Virus record (IMG/VR): IMGVR_UViG_3300044617_000796
Coordinates: 44,841 to 108,840 of that record
DNA from: a virus
Length of the DNA stretch: 64,000 nucleotides
Strand: one strand, 5' to 3'
Below, one piece after another: positions 12,866 to 18,490 of the stretch (the stretch's first letter is position 1; every line of letters begins with the position of its first letter). Position numbers and translations under genes: made by a program. Under the pieces are notes generated by a model that saw only the letters and a list, made by a program, of their open reading frames with translations, ran no database searches and was not told the DNA's origin.

Positions 12866-12919
12866 TACACCCAATCATTATTACTACCCCGCAAATTAGT
12901 ATCTGTGTATACTGATAAA

Positions 12920-13009
12920 GGCAGCGAAAGCTAACCTTAGGACCGTTATAGGTGCAGATGCCTCTGGGCTCAACCCCCAGGGGCATGTGCATGTGTAGCG
13001 GTCTTTTTT
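12920..13009 (+). ncRNA. Candidate structured small RNA (~90 nt)
   Basis: Own TG-TATACT at 12908-12913, 5' AGC-GAAA-GCT hairpin, long stem GACCGTTATA/TGTAGCGGTC enclosing ATGCCTCTGGG/CCCAGGGGCAT, ends in T6. Confidence 0.65.
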
Positions 13010-13207
13010 ATTCTCCCCCAAACTTTTATACTCCTATACCCGCCCTGAACCTTCCTATCCCAAATTTGAGTATACATTTTATGAATGTTACTTTTACTTT
13101 TAGACGCACTGGAAAATCCTGTGTTCACTAGGGTCAATCGCTGGAGTGCGATTCTGCTTAAGCAAAGAATTGTACACCAGCGATTGGGAAAGCGGATACA
13201 AAGGAAA

Positions 13208-13239
13208 TTGAATACACATTTTCTCTCAAATGCTATTGT
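13208..13239 (+). promoter_or_regulatory. Cassette 1 promoter
   Basis: TTGAAT-N20-TATTGT with TGc extension. Confidence 0.75.
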
Positions 13240-13280
13240 AATTTGTGTCAAGGCAATCCCGCCGAGACAGAGAGGACAGT

Positions 13281-13514
13281 ATGATTACTGAACACTGGAC
13301 ACGACAGAATGAGTTGCGTGAGCGTGAGCGCATGGCACTACGCTTGCTCAACCATATCCTGTCAATGACAATACCCGTTGAGGCTAATGACGATTGGTCT
13401 TGCGTCAAGTTCAACCTCAAATTAGAGGGCGGTTCCATTACCGTAATGACAGGCGCACAATATCACCCGTCATGCAATATGTACGAGGTCATGGAATACG
13501 AGGTACAGCGATGA
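13281..13514 (+). CDS. Cassette 1 gene a, hypothetical
   Basis: GAGG SD after 5' stem-loop; MITEHWTRQ... Confidence 0.75.
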   Translation: MITEHWTRQNELRERERMALRLLNHILSMTIPVEANDDWSCVKFNLKLEGGSITVMTGAQYHPSCNMYEVMEYEVQR

Positions 13515-13603
13515 AGTACCTACCACGCATTGGCTTCGGCATTGTGATTGGTTGCTTGGTTCTGATGATTGTTCAGACCATCGCCCACGCCTTTACAATG
13601 TGA
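13511..13603 (+). CDS. Cassette 1 gene b, 30-aa single-TM peptide
   Basis: GAGGT SD, ATGA overlap, MKYLPRIGFGIVIGCLVLMIVQTIAHAFTM*. Confidence 0.65.
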   Translation: MKYLPRIGFGIVIGCLVLMIVQTIAHAFTM

Positions 13604-13607
13604 GCCC

Positions 13608-13652
13608 GAACCCCGAATGCCTCCCCCCTGAGGCATTCGGGGTTCTTTTTTT
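13608..13652 (+). terminator. Intrinsic terminator T1
   Basis: GAACCCCGAATGCCTC/GAGGCATTCGGGGTTC plus T-run. Confidence 0.9.
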
Positions 13653-13791
13653 GTCCCTGCACCCGCCCTATCGCATGTCTGTTCCAATGAACTTTAATAC
13701 ACTCACAACACACATGCGATCGGGTGGTGGGCAAGGGCGCTTCAGCATTGCAATTGCACACCAACTGTTGAGGATCAGAGCATGAACGAGA

Positions 13792-13823
13792 TTGAATACA
13801 CATTTTTCCTCACATGGTATGTT
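13792..13823 (+). promoter_or_regulatory. Cassette 2 promoter
   Basis: TTGAAT-N20-TATGTT, TGg extension. Confidence 0.8.
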
Positions 13824-13868
13824 TATTGTTATCGGAACACACCTAACCCCGATGAAAGGACAAAGACC

Positions 13869-14177
13869 ATGAGTGAAAGAATATGTTCATATCATAGTTG
13901 GAACTACTTGTATGAAGTGCACCCAAGCGGTAAGTACTTCATTGCATACCAGTTCAGTTACGACAATAAAGAGAGACAAGTTATTGCCGTAGTTGACCGC
14001 TATGTAACAGATGACAAGTGGGCTGCTATGCGTTGGTGCAGGGCACAGTATGACCTTGAGGTTGAACCTTGGGACAGAAGTGCTGAAGCCAACGAGATTA
14101 GGGAGAGTGCAAGGGTTGCCTTGCATGAACTCCACGAGTTGGAGAAAGAACAGGACAGGTATCGTATCTACGGGTGA
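13869..14177 (+). CDS. Cassette 2 gene, hypothetical
   Basis: AAGGA SD; MSERICSYH... Confidence 0.75.
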   Translation: MSERICSYHSWNYLYEVHPSGKYFIAYQFSYDNKERQVIAVVDRYVTDDKWAAMRWCRAQYDLEVEPWDRSAEANEIRESARVALHELHELEKEQDRYRIYG

Positions 14178-14182
14178 TACCA

Positions 14183-14210
14183 TCTCCCCTCGCCTTTGGG
14201 CGGGGGGAGA
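14183..14210 (+). terminator. GC-rich hairpin T2 (no U-tract)
   Basis: TCTCCCCTCGCC-TTTG-GGCGGGGGGAGA; nearly identical to T6. Confidence 0.65.
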
Positions 14211-14342
14211 ACCCCGACCTAATTGCGAACGATCATACATGTTTTTTAATACACATTCTCACAAGAAAAAATCATTGGTGTGCGGAGCTGCTTCAGCGAA
14301 AGATTTGTGCACCAACGAATAGGGCACATGCTCTCAACAGCG

Positions 14343-14374
14343 TTTAATACACATTTTTTACAAGATGGTATGTT
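14343..14374 (+). promoter_or_regulatory. Cassette 3 promoter
   Basis: TTTAAT-N20-TATGTT, TGg extension. Confidence 0.8.
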
Positions 14375-14420
14375 TATTTATGTCAAGGACACTCCCTAAC
14401 ACCTTGACAGGGAGATAGCA

Positions 14421-14612
14421 ATGAAAAAGCGGACAGAAGTTAGTCCAAACCACCCAGTCGCAAGACTGACACTGGAACAACAATTCATGGTTGTTGCAGG
14501 CGCACTCAATCGTGCTACCCAGCAGGGCAACACGAAAGGCATTCAGGGCTTGGCAATGATGCTCAAGGGTTACGAGGAAGCAATAGCCAAGAAGAACCAA
14601 GAAGCCAAGTAA
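14421..14612 (+). CDS. Cassette 3 gene, hypothetical
   Basis: GGAGATAGCA-ATG. Confidence 0.8.
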   Translation: MKKRTEVSPNHPVARLTLEQQFMVVAGALNRATQQGNTKGIQGLAMMLKGYEEAIAKKNQEAK

Positions 14613-14629
14613 TACCCTAATCCCCCCAG

Positions 14630-14665
14630 TCCCCTCAAGCCGAAAGGCTTGGGGGGATTTTTTTT
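14630..14665 (+). terminator. Intrinsic terminator T3
   Basis: TCCCCTCAAGCC-GAAA-GGCTTGGGGGGA plus T8. Confidence 0.9.
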
Positions 14666-14803
14666 GCCTAAACACCAGCGTTCTCACATGACCATACCCT
14701 TTATCTTTAATACACATTCTCATCACACAAGAACGGTGGTGTGCAAAGCTGCTTCAGCAAAAGATTTGTACGCCAACGAATGAGGTACACACTATCAACT
14801 CTC

Positions 14804-14835
14804 TTTAATACACATTTTCCATCAGATGGTATGGT
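14804..14835 (+). promoter_or_regulatory. Cassette 4 promoter
   Basis: TTTAAT-N20-TATGGT, TGg extension. Confidence 0.75.
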
Positions 14836-14879
14836 TATCTTGTTCCTAGCAATCCCGCTAGGACAGATTGGAGATAGCA

Positions 14880-15101
14880 ATGAAAATTATGGTTACTATC
14901 CAAACCCCGACTTGCCCCGAATGCGGGCATTGGGGCGAGATCCAAATGACCCGTGATGAATGGGAGTTTGGCAAGACGGCTAGTTGGCAGGGCGAACTCA
15001 TTCAGAATTGTTTCCCTACCCTTACCCCAGCCCAGCGTGAGCAACTCATGAATGGCTACCATTCAGAGTGTTGGGATAAGATGTTTGCGAGTGCAGAATG
15101 A
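14880..15101 (+). CDS. Cassette 4 gene a, small Zn-binding protein
   Basis: GGAGATAGCA-ATG; CPEC...IQNCFPTLTPAQREQLMNGYHSECWDKMF. Confidence 0.8.
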   Translation: MKIMVTIQTPTCPECGHWGEIQMTRDEWEFGKTASWQGELIQNCFPTLTPAQREQLMNGYHSECWDKMFASAE

Positions 15102-15337
15102 GCCCGCAATTACTGGAGACTATCCTCCACGCCGTAGCAGACCTACGGATACCCAAGACTGACGGGGTAATCATTGAGGCTCTCAAGATACCCCGTGAGA
15201 TATTCCAGCAAGACGGTGTAGAGTGCCGTAAATACAAGCGGAGTGTTGAGCATCAGATACGCACTCACCCCGCTATCAAGCCAGTACTTGTCTGGTGGAC
15301 AGTACACGGTGACTGCTACTTGACAAGAGCAGACTGA
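15098..15337 (+). CDS. Cassette 4 gene b, hypothetical
   Basis: ATGA overlap with gene a; stop just before terminator. Confidence 0.7.
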   Translation: MSPQLLETILHAVADLRIPKTDGVIIEALKIPREIFQQDGVECRKYKRSVEHQIRTHPAIKPVLVWWTVHGDCYLTRAD

Positions 15338-15342
15338 AACTT

Positions 15343-15376
15343 CCCCCTCGTGCCTTCGGGTGCGAGGGGGTTTTTT
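15343..15376 (+). terminator. Intrinsic terminator T4
   Basis: CCCCTCGTGCC-TTCG-GGTGCGAGGGG plus T6. Confidence 0.9.
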
Positions 15377-15516
15377 CATGTCCAACACCAGTCTTTCCGT
15401 ATGCCATTGCCCATTGTCTTGAATACACATTCTCATACGAAAAAAAGAATGGTGTACGGAGCTGCTTCAGCAAAAGCTTTGTGCACCAGCCGAAGGGGTA
15501 CACACTCTCAACTACA

Positions 15517-15548
15517 TTGAATACACATTTTTCATGATATGTTATGTT
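15517..15548 (+). promoter_or_regulatory. Cassette 5 promoter
   Basis: TTGAAT-N20-TATGTT, TGt extension. Confidence 0.8.
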
Positions 15549-15595
15549 TATTCATGTCAGCGATTATCCTAACCCCGCTGGCAAGGAGAAAGCAA

Positions 15596-15853
15596 ATGAA
15601 ACGAGTACCTAAAGGCTCTGTCAAGGTAATGAAGCGTGGGCGCAGTAAGTTCCATGACCCGTACCTTGCCAAGTGCGTCAAGGCAGTAAGCAACACTTAT
15701 GATATTGTTGCAACACAAAGGGCAGTACCGAACACGATAGCCAACAAAAACCGTGTTCGTTCCCGCATTATGAGCCTTGCAGGAAACAAAAAACTTGGCG
15801 TGAATTGGTACGCTGAGGGCAAACTTGTAGTGCCAGTAATCACCAAGAAATAA
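15596..15853 (+). CDS. Cassette 5 gene, basic RGR-motif protein (distant paralogue of cassette 7/8 genes)
   Basis: AAGGAGA SD; KRGRSKFHDPYL...NKNRVRSRI...GVNWYAEGKLVV. Confidence 0.8.
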   Translation: MKRVPKGSVKVMKRGRSKFHDPYLAKCVKAVSNTYDIVATQRAVPNTIANKNRVRSRIMSLAGNKKLGVNWYAEGKLVVPVITKK

Positions 15854-15869
15854 GGTCGCTTCTCCAGCG

Positions 15870-15903
15870 AACCCCCAAGCCTACGGGCTTGGGGGTTTTT
15901 TTT
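15870..15903 (+). terminator. Intrinsic terminator T5
   Basis: AACCCCCAAGCC-TACG-GGCTTGGGGGTT plus T-run. Confidence 0.9.
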
Positions 15904-16044
15904 GTGCCTGAACGCCAGCGCCATAGCAAAGTCATAACCAGTTGGTTGAGCACATGTTCTCTCTCTTGATATGTCGTTGGCGTGCGGATTGGGTTTACCA
16001 AACAATTTGAACGACAACGAAAAGGGTACAGGGTCTCAACGGCA

Positions 16045-16076
16045 TTGAATACACATTTTTGATGACATGGTATGTT
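16045..16076 (+). promoter_or_regulatory. Cassette 6 promoter
   Basis: TTGAAT-N20-TATGTT, TGg extension. Confidence 0.8.
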
Positions 16077-16122
16077 TATAGATGTCAAGGACATTCCATA
16101 CCCCCTTGACAAGGAGATAGCA

Positions 16123-16389
16123 ATGACACACCTACCCGAACACCCAAGAGCACTCACGATTGCTCATGAGGATGTTGTCAAAGTTGCCTTGCAACTGAAA
16201 GACAACCTCATCACCAGAGGCGAGATGAATGCTCAGATGCTCAGCATTGTGGTTGGCATGAAAGTTGCCCTGCGCCAAGAGTTCATTGGCGAAGTGCAGG
16301 ACAAGTTGAGCGACATTGAGCAACTGTTCACAGATGTTCAAGGCTCAATTGAGGAAATGGATTACCTCACACTCTTCCAACCAGAGTGA
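16123..16389 (+). CDS. Cassette 6 gene, helical/coiled-coil hypothetical
   Basis: AAGGAGATAGCA-ATG; MTHLPEHP... Confidence 0.8.
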   Translation: MTHLPEHPRALTIAHEDVVKVALQLKDNLITRGEMNAQMLSIVVGMKVALRQEFIGEVQDKLSDIEQLFTDVQGSIEEMDYLTLFQPE

Positions 16390-16404
16390 TTGTTCCTTCC
16401 CCCG

Positions 16405-16439
16405 CTCCCCTCGCCTTCGGGCGGGGGGAGTTTTTTTTT
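16405..16439 (+). terminator. Intrinsic terminator T6
   Basis: CTCCCCTCGCC-TTCG-GGCGGGGGGAG plus T9. Confidence 0.9.
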
Positions 16440-16578
16440 GCCTGAACTCCAACTTTTCCCATATGCCATGTCTCTTTGCTTGAGTACACATTCTCACACT
16501 GGAAAAAAAGCTGGTGGGCGGATCTGCTTTAGCAAAAGATTTGCACTCCAGCCAATGAGGAAGCGAAACGAAACCAGG

Positions 16579-16610
16579 TTGAATACATATTTTTAGCGTA
16601 ATGCTATATT
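16579..16610 (+). promoter_or_regulatory. Cassette 7 promoter
   Basis: TTGAAT-N20-TATATT, TGc extension. Confidence 0.8.
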
Positions 16611-16676
16611 TATCTCATGCCAAAGCGATTAGGCTGAGGCAACACACTGCGGTGTGTATAACCAAGGAGATAAGCA

Positions 16677-16988
16677 ATGCCAAAGGTAAACCTAAGCGAC
16701 CTCAAAGGTCAGTTATCATCTCGTGGGCGAGCCCCGTATGACAACCCTGAACTTGAGGCTGAAATCAAGAGCCTTGACCCAGCCATTGATGGTGATGCAA
16801 CCATCTATGAGGGCAGTCAAGGAGACCCATCAAGCGAGGACTACACGAACCACAAAGCAATGTGGCGTGGGCGTGCCGAGACAATTGCCGACAAGAACGG
16901 CATTGCCATCAGCGTGCAGTGGCTCACCACTGGTCAGATGGTTATCTCGCTTGCCAAGCCTGCAAAGGGCAAGAGCAAGCGCAAGTAA
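16677..16988 (+). CDS. Cassette 7 gene, RGR-motif protein (possible DNA binding)
   Basis: AAGGAGA SD; clear paralogue of 17309..17614. Confidence 0.85.
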   Translation: MPKVNLSDLKGQLSSRGRAPYDNPELEAEIKSLDPAIDGDATIYEGSQGDPSSEDYTNHKAMWRGRAETIADKNGIAISVQWLTTGQMVISLAKPAKGKSKRK

Positions 16989-17010
16989 CCGCATCTCCTG
17001 CGGTTAGTAT

Positions 17011-17045
17011 AGAACCCCCGTACTTCGGTACGGGGGTTCTTTTTT
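17011..17045 (+). terminator. Intrinsic terminator T7
   Basis: AGAACCCCCGTAC-TTCG-GTACGGGGGTTCT plus T-run. Confidence 0.92.
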
Positions 17046-17210
17046 GCTGGCGTTCATCCCGTGCTGAAGCACAATGAACGCCAGCTTTGCGACACATGCC
17101 ATTCTCTCATTTTTAGTACAGATTCTCAATCCCATTCCCTGGCGGGCGTGCGATTGCGCTTTAGCGATGCAATTGCACACCCGCTGTTGGGGTACCAATA
17201 CGAAACCGAA

Positions 17211-17242
17211 TTGAATACATATTTTCACCATAATGGTATGTT
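17211..17242 (+). promoter_or_regulatory. Cassette 8 promoter
   Basis: TTGAAT-N20-TATGTT, TGg extension. Confidence 0.8.
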
Positions 17243-17635: not shown

Positions 17636-17670
17636 AGAAGCCCCGTACTTCGGTACGGGGCTTCTTTTTT
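17636..17670 (+). terminator. Intrinsic terminator T8
   Basis: AGAAGCCCCGTAC-TTCG-GTACGGGGCTTCT plus T-run. Confidence 0.92.
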
Positions 17671-18490
17671 GCTGGTGTTCATCCCGTGCTAAAGCACAAT
17701 GAACACCAGTTATCAGAAGGCTTATCGTTACCATTTTTAATATACATATTCCTAATCATAAAGATGGCGGGTGTCCCAAAAAGAAATGCATTTGTTTTTG
17801 TACACCCGCAAAATATAATTAATTTATCGCTTAACTTTATTACATATTTCTAATCATAACTATAAGATTACATATGGCTTTCAAAATGTATTCCAAAATC
17901 TCATAGATAAATACTTATCTAAGGGAGGAAGGTAAAAGTTTACGCACATTTTATTTTTGTTAATCAAATGGGCTGGGAAAGACTTAGCCTGTCTCTCTAC
18001 CTATCGCCTCAGATTACATCAGTGTAATCAAACACTTATACTATTCCTAAATCTATGCATCAACCCGTCATTATTCTGGGTCATCAATCGGTTATAGTAT
18101 TACGCCCCTATATAGTCTAAAAGAGGGGGAATATGTTTGTATTATTCTTATAGATACCCAGTAATAGGGTATTTACATAGGGGAATCTAAATAGATCTCA
18201 ATATCTGAGCTTTTTTGCCCAATTGTTGACCATTTTGGTAGTATTTCTATTAAAAATATTATTAATTAGTGAAAAAAAGACAAAAAAAACACCCAAAAAT
18301 AAGCTTATTTTAAGCCTATAAATGGGTGTTTTCCTTATGTACTATGTGATATATCAGCTATATATTATTGATACATCTATGATATGCCTATGATATGAAC
18401 TCCTGCTATATAGAATATATCTTATACATATTGGAGCGTGTCTCTCTCATACGCTAATGGTTTTTGACACTTATTTTCTATCAATTCAAA

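Follow-up and report, generated by a model that had tools for sequence, protein, structure and literature searches.

What is the function of a hairpin that recurs in every linker of a phage cassette array, differs in sequence from copy to copy and still keeps one fold? The question is raised by IMG/VR virus record IMGVR_UViG_3300044617_000796 (108,840 bp), of which bases 44841–108840 (64,000 nucleotides, henceforth called the window) were analysed. The source is an uncultured phage of a widespread freshwater lineage (CheckV completeness 100%), and the window carries, on the plus strand at ~12.9–17.9 kb, an array of small early-gene cassettes with a G+C content of 44–49% versus ~30–40% in the flanks. 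Early host-takeover ORFan arrays are the least understood and fastest-changing part of phage genomes. The linkers of this array (~200 nt) contain, in this order, an intrinsic terminator, a motif A, the hairpin in question (H), a 28-nt spacer, a promoter B, a leader hairpin, and a Shine-Dalgarno site. Coordinates refer to the window and are collected in Table 1; promoters and terminators were called at the consensus level from sequence only. The tentative answer reached here is that H acts as a sense-strand RNA hairpin recognised by a protein, and that it would serve as a direction-dependent insulator or processing site for transcripts reaching each promoter.

Copies of H were located by covariance-model matches. 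The eight hairpins to which a sequence-only reading of the window had drawn attention were all recovered within 4 nt of the places given there, and a ninth copy (H9), missed at the time, was added. The fold described earlier was correct: each of these eight hairpins consists of a long imperfect stem, an A-rich 3′ bulge of 2–3 nt, an apical GC stem of 2 bp (GG/CC in unit 6), and a TTCA, TTTA or TTAA loop. H is 37–39 nt long between fixed anchor positions and has 17–20 pairs in total (15–18 in the lower stem, 2–5 in the apical stem) with a loop of 4–5 nt. The stem base has the consensus GCTGGYG/CRCCAGC; its three basal pairs (G:C, G:C and C:G in GGNGNGC/GYNCNCC) did not vary in any alignment, and both N positions of this motif were often mismatched (T.T, G.A). 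The two apical pairs were invariant or nearly so (95–100% paired), and the last base of the loop was always A. Two apex types were distinguished, namely GC-TTYA-GC with an AAA bulge and GTGC-GNNTA-GCAC with an AA bulge. The middle stem varies through compensatory double substitutions. By analogy, such conserved contact points on an otherwise pairing-only stem suggest that the folded hairpin is read by a protein. Downstream of H, the sequence continues as NNNN-RGG and has no U tract.

Among the window copies (n = 9), 85.5% of the alignment cells were paired, versus 31–40% with slid partners, and double-sided changes were found at 11 of the 20 pairs; none of 500 shuffles reached the covariation score, which bears out the compensatory changes noted before. 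The signal also held with homologues included, i.e., in the 66-copy, metagenome and MAFFT sets. Across four alignments, in which orthologous copies are counted and independent events are hence fewer than the cell counts, 79–86% of cells were paired versus 27–48% with slid partners, again with 0 of 500 shuffles reaching the score in each. One of the four, a plain MAFFT alignment of 56 distinct hairpins that was not fitted to the structure, gave 80.2% versus 30–48% (score 0.332 versus at most 0.149). The pairing is also strand-specific. On the sense strand, G.T or T.G exceeded A.C or C.A by ~4:1 (103 versus 25 in 66 copies; 174 versus 37 in 110 distinct metagenome copies), and the sense strand was more stable than the antisense strand in 63 of 66 copies, as expected from the earlier remark that mismatches are mostly G-T on the plus strand and favour folding of the top strand. 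Some pairs keep an invariant U and switch freely between A-U and G.U without G-C ever occurring, which reflects selection on sense-strand pairing and not a mutational bias.

Folding energies distinguish between the nucleic acids. RNA folds of the nine window copies ranged from −15.6 to −29.2 kcal/mol (z −1.8 to −6.8), and DNA folds of the top strand from −6.4 to −15.1 kcal/mol with z as poor as −0.5; bottom-strand DNA of units 2–7 was at shuffle level. Since the bottom-strand hairpins are mostly no better than shuffles, a cruciform is unlikely. RNA is thus the better fit to the chemistry of the H stem and most likely its active form. Of the folded, strand-specific single-strand signal that had been proposed previously, the core stands, as covariation and strand bias are not those of a plain double-stranded palindrome; the cruciform version does not agree with the bottom-strand energies.

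The orientation of further copies adds to this picture. Two inverted copies (H0), which had escaped the sequence-only reading, form perfect 12-bp hairpins. They are confined to distal linkers, i.e., the last two in the window and the last two to three in every related array checked. The upper part of H0 is the reverse complement of the upper part of H, loop and bulge included, and follows the apex type of each phage; in type II phages, H0 reached 32–37 bits on the antisense strand with the hairpin-only model. H0 faces a long minus-strand gene block that begins directly right of the array, so that transcription converges on the array's right end, and this block is conserved in every array with its right flank present. 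A simple scan of the window found no minus-strand terminator-like site between the gene block and the array. As a separate observation, the loops of H0 (TGAA, TAAA) are complementary to those of H (TTCA, TTTA), and loop-loop kissing of H and H0 in read-through RNA is conceivable.

The occurrence of the apex in both orientations and its joint change between phage types would also suit a duplex operator, a palindrome to which a dimeric regulator binds ahead of each early promoter. The basal arms are indeed inverted repeats of each other and contain invariant positions, complementarity is dispensable at the N positions (T.T and G.A are common), and the distance to the promoter is rigid. An operator nevertheless appears quite improbable, as the middle stems of one genome differ in sequence but still pair, the 3′ bulge makes the hairpin asymmetric, the wobble bias of 4:1 concerns one strand, and the half-sites would lie ~35 bp apart.

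The position of H relative to the promoter is an argument for a role at the DNA level. Promoter B, which consists of the box TTGAATACACATT and a TAnnnT −10 element (often TGn-extended) at a fixed +26, lies ahead of each cassette, and every promoter B is accompanied by an H. The sequence-only reading had placed the hairpin between a terminator and the next promoter, and this was confirmed. Counted from the 3′ arm of H, the promoter box begins at a distance of 29 nt in 64 of 66 copies and in all 108 distinct metagenome copies (172 of 174 distinct), while the spacer between motif A and H varied from 25 to 38 nt. The sequence of the H-to-box spacer is poorly conserved except for RGG ~8 nt past the stem. 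Such geometry could mean that H is a promoter element made of DNA, in which the negative supercoiling that builds up behind a highly active promoter extrudes a hairpin from the non-template strand. A protein or the polymerase would recognise this hairpin at a fixed ~−67 to −105 from the start, as a host-polymerase analogue of the N4 hairpin. In favour of this are, besides the fixed length, the fixed distance and the pairing of H with every promoter B, the AC[A/T]CC register ~30 nt before the box, which is kept upstream of motif A even where the hairpin is missing, and the mixture of invariant and pairing-only stem positions as described for N4 promoters (PMC4496689). We nevertheless consider this explanation, the main rival of the RNA reading, doubtful. 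Extrusion would be costly given the weak top-strand DNA hairpins and the bottom strands at shuffle level, stems rich in tandem G.T are typical of RNA, and the H0 copies have no leftward promoter to serve. In addition, neither a phage sigma factor nor a phage RNA polymerase was found, although the control search for the polymerase was likewise empty. No −35/−10 pair was found inside the H stem that would indicate a promoter of the single-strand type, and a minus-strand promoter within the box was dropped, as it has no workable −10.

In the reading of H as a protein-recognised RNA hairpin, any polymerase nearing a cassette promoter from upstream would transcribe H, be it after reading through the terminator, after crossing a stem-loop without a U tract, or after initiation at a further promoter of canonical appearance, P1. 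This promoter lies ~45 nt upstream of H1 and is kept in all related arrays in which that region is present. A protein would then recognise the invariant basal pairs (GGNGNGC/GYNCNCC) together with the invariant apex (GC, a loop ending in A, GC), and the bound hairpin would stop, release or cut the transcript just before the promoter, in an RNase III-like or roadblock-coupled manner. A polymerase stalled at a complex held on the box would have its 3′ end ~7–8 nt past the hairpin, where the hairpin could release it. H0 would act likewise on antisense transcription from the convergent minus-strand operon. What the sequences show is the fold, strand, geometry, distribution and orientation of the copies; RNA as the active form, a protein as its reader and the fate of the transcript are inferred. 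This reading is favoured because it accounts for the strand, the RNA-type chemistry, the ~20-bp length, P1, and the orientation and placement of H0. A length of 17–20 pairs is that of a minimal RNase III substrate, and H has the corresponding form (~20 bp of mostly paired RNA with an internal loop).

Transcription of H is plausible, in particular for H1 behind P1 and for units behind stem-loops without a U tract, which precede H in several units. After gene 2, a GC-rich stem-loop (14183–14214) lacks the U tract and the GCCTG of the other terminators, and the same variant was found after the homologous cassettes in contigs L006, L012, L013 and L016. The variant looks like a clean deletion and probably joins two cassettes in one transcript; H3 is probably transcribed because this stem-loop lies upstream of it. 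The earlier suggestion that the hairpins are probably not transcribed therefore appears weak in view of P1 upstream of H1, the stem-loop without a U tract, the sense-strand fold and the RNA-type stability.

Several points weigh against the interpretation of H as an RNA signal for incoming transcripts. H lies 75–100 nt past strong canonical terminators, so that little RNA, i.e., from read-through only, is to be expected at most copies. The 29-nt distance to the box ties H to a DNA element, and an RNA model needs the additional assumption of a polymerase stalled by a roadblock. Lacking a U tract, H by itself does not qualify as an intrinsic terminator, and P1, placed just ahead of a blocker, would be understandable only with a conditional block or with H acting in processing or stabilisation. 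The candidates examined yielded no trans factor. For the family of genes 7 and 8, which was considered in this role, the AlphaFold model had a mean pLDDT of 66 and Foldseek against the PDB returned nothing at E ≤ 0.001; a profile search of the PDB gave nothing meaningful, and the ESM Atlas gave hypothetical proteins only. Neither sigma region 2 nor RNase III was detected among the genes of the phage genome.

There is a real chance that the mechanism of H is new. It is conceivable, if somewhat unlikely, that H represents a new promoter-coupled signal, namely a protein-read hairpin without a U tract at a fixed 29 nt before the box. In one possible form, termination at H would rely on a roadblock, the polymerase or protein bound at the next promoter, instead of a U tract, which would provide each cassette with a directional shield, with H0 guarding against the convergent operon. 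In the other possible form, a hairpin of the non-template DNA strand would regulate the host polymerase, as a host-enzyme counterpart of the N4 mechanism.

Motif A bears on a further alternative, in which H is the body of an independent small RNA started at motif A. Motif A is a degenerate upstream copy of the promoter box and lies 25–38 nt upstream of H, which would suit such an RNA. It has no −10 at workable spacing and is absent from some units, and no terminator follows H, which makes an independent small RNA very improbable. The fallback proposal of the sequence-only reading, an unrecognised small RNA, is thus divided: its RNA-element part is the better-supported half, and the independent transcript is disfavoured. 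The linker is an internal duplication: after each terminator, GCCYGAAC(A/T)CCAGC precedes motif A in the same register in which the 3′ arm of H precedes promoter B. Motif A looks like promoter B with 11 nt deleted, and by eye, motif A with H looks like promoter B with its leader hairpin from which the −10 was deleted.

Table 1. Features of the cassette linkers and their surroundings (positions in the window)
Feature	Position	Strand	Remarks
H1	13138..13183	+	Covariance-model match; RNA minimum free energy (MFE) −24.7, z −6.8
H2	13721..13767	+	Covariance-model match; RNA −17.1
H3	14272..14318	+	Covariance-model match; DNA z −0.49 versus RNA z −2.2
H4	14733..14779	+	Covariance-model match; RNA fold
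H5	15446..15492	+	Covariance-model match; RNA −22.1; hairpin not formed by bottom-strand DNA
H6	15974..16020	+	Covariance-model match; apex GG-TTTA-CC
H7	16508..16554	+	Covariance-model match; RNA fold
H8	17140..17186	+	Covariance-model match; RNA −29.2
H9	17765..17811	+	Degenerate AT-rich apex on shared GGCGGGTGT/ACACCCGC base; covariance model 90.4 bits; conserved in L006, L007, L012, L015
H0, inverted copy of H directly past terminator T7	17046..17085	−	Hairpin-only model 24.2 bits (−) versus 17.9 (+)
H0, inverted copy of H directly past terminator T8	17671..17710	−	Hairpin-only model 22.5 bits (−) versus 19.6 (+)
Promoter P1	13066..13094	+	TTGAGT-17-TGTTACTTT (TTGAGT, 17 nt, TGT-TACTTT)
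Promoter B1	13208..13239	+	Box TTGAATACACATT and −10 at +26
Promoter B2	13792..13823	+	TGGTATGTT extended −10
Promoter B3	14343..14374	+	
Promoter B4	14804..14835	+	
Promoter B5	15517..15548	+	
Promoter B6	16045..16076	+	
Promoter B7	16579..16610	+	
Promoter B8	17211..17242	+	
Promoter-like B9	17836..17867	+	TATAAG −10; points into AT-rich non-coding stretch
Motif A	14245..14260	+	Other starts: 13693, 14706, 15419, 15946, 16480, 17112, 17736
Terminator T1	13608..13652	+	Terminator-like site scan
Other terminator stems	14628–14659, 15343–15370, 15869–15898, 16404–16431, 17011–17040, 17636–17665	+	Terminator-like site scan
GC-rich stem-loop after gene 2	14183..14214	+	No U tract
Leader hairpin U3	14381..14409	+	TGTCAAGG...CCTTGACA
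Analogous covarying leader hairpins	13246–13269, 13829–13855, 14844–14863, 15555–15583, 16083–16111	+	

The scan for terminator-like sites returned 23 sites versus 6.4 expected, and the array holds seven GC-rich stems followed by U tracts. The leader hairpins, which the sequence-only reading had not recorded, start a few bases past the −10 and lie directly before a strong Shine-Dalgarno site; their arms differ among units yet stay complementary (e.g., CCTAGC...GCTAGG, CAGCG...CGCTG), and they are probably stabilisers of the 5′ end. As an isolated observation, a variant of the promoter box, TTGAGTATA(C/T)ATTTT, occurs in two plus-strand copies at ~26548 and ~38951 inside the minus-strand block, both without an H; one of them lies ~50 nt from a tRNA-Arg.

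Related arrays in IMG/VR were reached via one cassette protein and a conserved upstream element. The covariance model of the module yielded 66 copies on seven IMG/VR contigs, all of them within arrays and on the array strand, and it found no H outside the array in this phage genome. A pattern from the 3′ arm of H to the promoter box recovered 235 further copies on 55 metagenome contigs, i.e., >300 copies overall. The H-to-promoter pattern had no match in 185,579 prokaryote genomes, hence no prophage or host copy, and megablast of the array against 50,697 phage records likewise gave no match. At the Rfam gathering threshold, the only matches in the window were three tRNAs and none was for H; permissive matches (E ≤ 5) of the hairpins to microRNA models and NsiR1 were dismissed as chance matches to stems. 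The exact promoter pattern had two matches in IMG/VR, both judged to be chance. One of the two (L004:5935–6220, on an unrelated 40-kb viral contig) adjoins a gene that is clearly homologous to cassette gene 4 (zinc-ribbon, ...ECWD.(I/M)F motif), which indicates that this small protein family travels between phage groups.

Shuffling of cassettes is evident from the comparison of these sequences. Relative to contig L013, genes 1, 2 and 4 are 97–100% identical and genes 3, 5 and 6 are 44–50% identical; the window is a cassette-by-cassette mosaic with regard to L013, L012, L016 and L047, gene 6 is placed before gene 4 in four contigs, and L006 has one extra and one replaced cassette. H is more uniform within one phage than between phages. 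All of this would be compatible with H having no regulatory role of its own and being part of a linker like the PeSL linkers of T4-like phages, which supplies homology, perhaps with hairpin-stimulated breaks or template switches, for shuffling, and which is kept uniform by gene conversion; PeSL linkers do serve shuffling in T4-like phages (PMC2839356). However, homologous recombination needs no hairpin, and the fold itself appears to be under selection, judging from covariation within one genome, invariant pairs, wobbles on one strand, and fixed length and spacing amid randomised adjacent spacers. With neither a tyrosine recombinase nor a Y1 transposase found in the genome, this alternative is clearly unlikely. 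A mimic of CRISPR repeats was dropped, as the copies within one phage are too divergent.

The same searches bear on the proposal that the array is an integron-like or HUH-type cassette system with H as the folded single-strand recombination site. Small cassettes separated by imperfect, strand-specific, bulged hairpins are what such a system would look like. In the 108,840-bp genome, PF00589 (tyrosine recombinase/integrase) had no match while all control genomes matched, and PF01797 (Y1/HUH transposase) had none either, in spite of the complete CheckV rating. The base of the stem (GCTGGYG/CRCCAGC) is not the attC core RYYYAAC/GTTRRRY, each cassette comes with a promoter and a terminator, and H precedes that promoter instead of marking the 3′ end of the cassette. 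This explanation is already largely refuted and hardly credible. The analogues named by the sequence-only reading (integron attC sites, HUH/REP substrates and N4 hairpin promoters) fared correspondingly, as the genome revealed no integrase, no Y1/HUH transposase, and no N4-like virion polymerase.

The last of these statements concerns the sole giant open reading frame (ORF) of the genome (4374 aa; G000:C1:4812–17939, minus strand, outside the window), which matches the tape measure families PF10145 and phrog_167. The match identifies a long-tailed phage of the siphovirus type. The tail would be exceptionally long if its length scales with the 4374-aa tape measure protein as in other siphoviruses. 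PF00940 (T7-type RNA polymerase) had no match in the phage genome; the control search was likewise empty, and absence of such a polymerase is hence not shown. Genes for a terminase, a DnaE-type DNA polymerase, a DnaB-like helicase and a ribonucleotide reductase were found. The best identities of the terminase among phage records were only ~41–42% (to Streptomyces phages), for which reason the host was not identified. Among ten proteins of the array region searched against Pfam, only the flanking zinc-ribbon protein was above the cut-off, and gene 4 had a sub-threshold match to DUF7167.

Further elements were observed next to the cassettes. Between the zinc-ribbon gene and the array lies an element of ~95 nt (12915–13012, plus strand) consisting of a GNRA-capped mini-hairpin, a long hairpin of 34 pairs, and a U tract. 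It has no Rfam match, is nearly identical across the related arrays, and also occurs in an otherwise unrelated phage contig (L011:4612–4712) with its apex swapped; it may be a small RNA or an elaborate terminator. A pairing of this upstream RNA-like element with the promoter box was dropped, as the 7-nt complementarity is not kept in L006. An ORF of 30 aa (13512–13603, plus strand) that overlaps the gene 1 stop codon and is kept in L006 has a hydrophobic product (MKYLPRIGFGIVIGCLVLMIVQ...), which may be a small membrane peptide. Between the array and the convergent minus-strand genes, an AT-rich stretch of ~600 bp (17868–18490) has no convincing ORF, and the promoter-like B9 points into it. 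It is conserved in L006 and partly in L007 and could give rise to a non-coding RNA or serve as a collision zone or as an origin.

The linker is unusually rich in structure, and >300 copies of it are conserved in a freshwater phage lineage that is widespread. As a directional insulator or processing site, H would show how dozens of strong promoters can fire side by side, and against a convergent operon, without interference, and synthetic biology would gain a small part whose action depends on its orientation. Should H act as DNA, hairpin-dependent control of transcription would extend beyond N4. Either way, H marks such arrays in metagenomes, and the covariance models could seed a new family of RNA or cis elements.

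H was found neither in Rfam nor in the literature searched, and the known systems resemble it in different respects. With integron attC sites, it shares imperfect, structure-conserved and strand-specific hairpins between small gene cassettes; unlike in integrons, there are no integrase and no R″/R′ core sites, and each cassette is served by a promoter of its own, which H precedes. The RNase III sites of the early region of phage T7 are intergenic imperfect hairpins within one long transcript that has no internal promoters or terminators. Like H, they comprise ~20 bp, are interrupted by an internal loop or bulge that is asymmetric, recur between early genes and fold on the sense strand, whereas H stands between terminator and promoter at a fixed promoter distance, and its cleavage is hypothetical.

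The early promoters of phage N4 are DNA hairpins read by a virion RNA polymerase, in which some bases are conserved and required and others are needed for pairing only (PMC4496689). Common to both are a hairpin linked to early transcription, the mixture of conserved and pairing-only bases, and strand-specific stability. In N4, however, a giant virion polymerase recognises a template-strand hairpin that has its centre at −11, a stem of 5–7 bp and a 3-nt loop, in contrast to the 17–20 pairs of H on the non-template (sense) strand at ~−67 to −105 beside an ordinary sigma70-type promoter. Moreover, the only giant ORF here is the tape measure match, and the PF00940 search was empty together with its control.

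The promoter-early stem-loop (PeSL) cassettes were described in T4-like myoviruses (Arbiol et al. 2010, PMC2839356; Comeau et al. 2014, PMC4122927). A further trait of PeSL cassettes is that mini-circles form when linkers recombine. Here as there, an intergenic module is repeated in which a strong sigma70-type early promoter is combined with an upstream GC-rich stem-loop terminator (called here by sequence), the modules flank small ORFan genes in a hyperplastic region, and from one related phage to another cassettes have been gained, lost, replaced or reordered at the linkers. The differences are that the present array belongs to a siphovirus with a 4374-aa tape measure protein and not to a T4-like myovirus, and that its linker of ~200 nt is internally duplicated and carries the additional hairpins H, H0 and U besides the terminator. 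To our knowledge, the terminator is the sole stem-loop described in PeSLs, and we know of no covariation, invariant pairs, fixed length, 29-nt spacing or inverted boundary copies in them. The array thus has those features of PeSL cassettes that can be read from sequence, in a different kind of phage, and these cassettes are its closest known kind.

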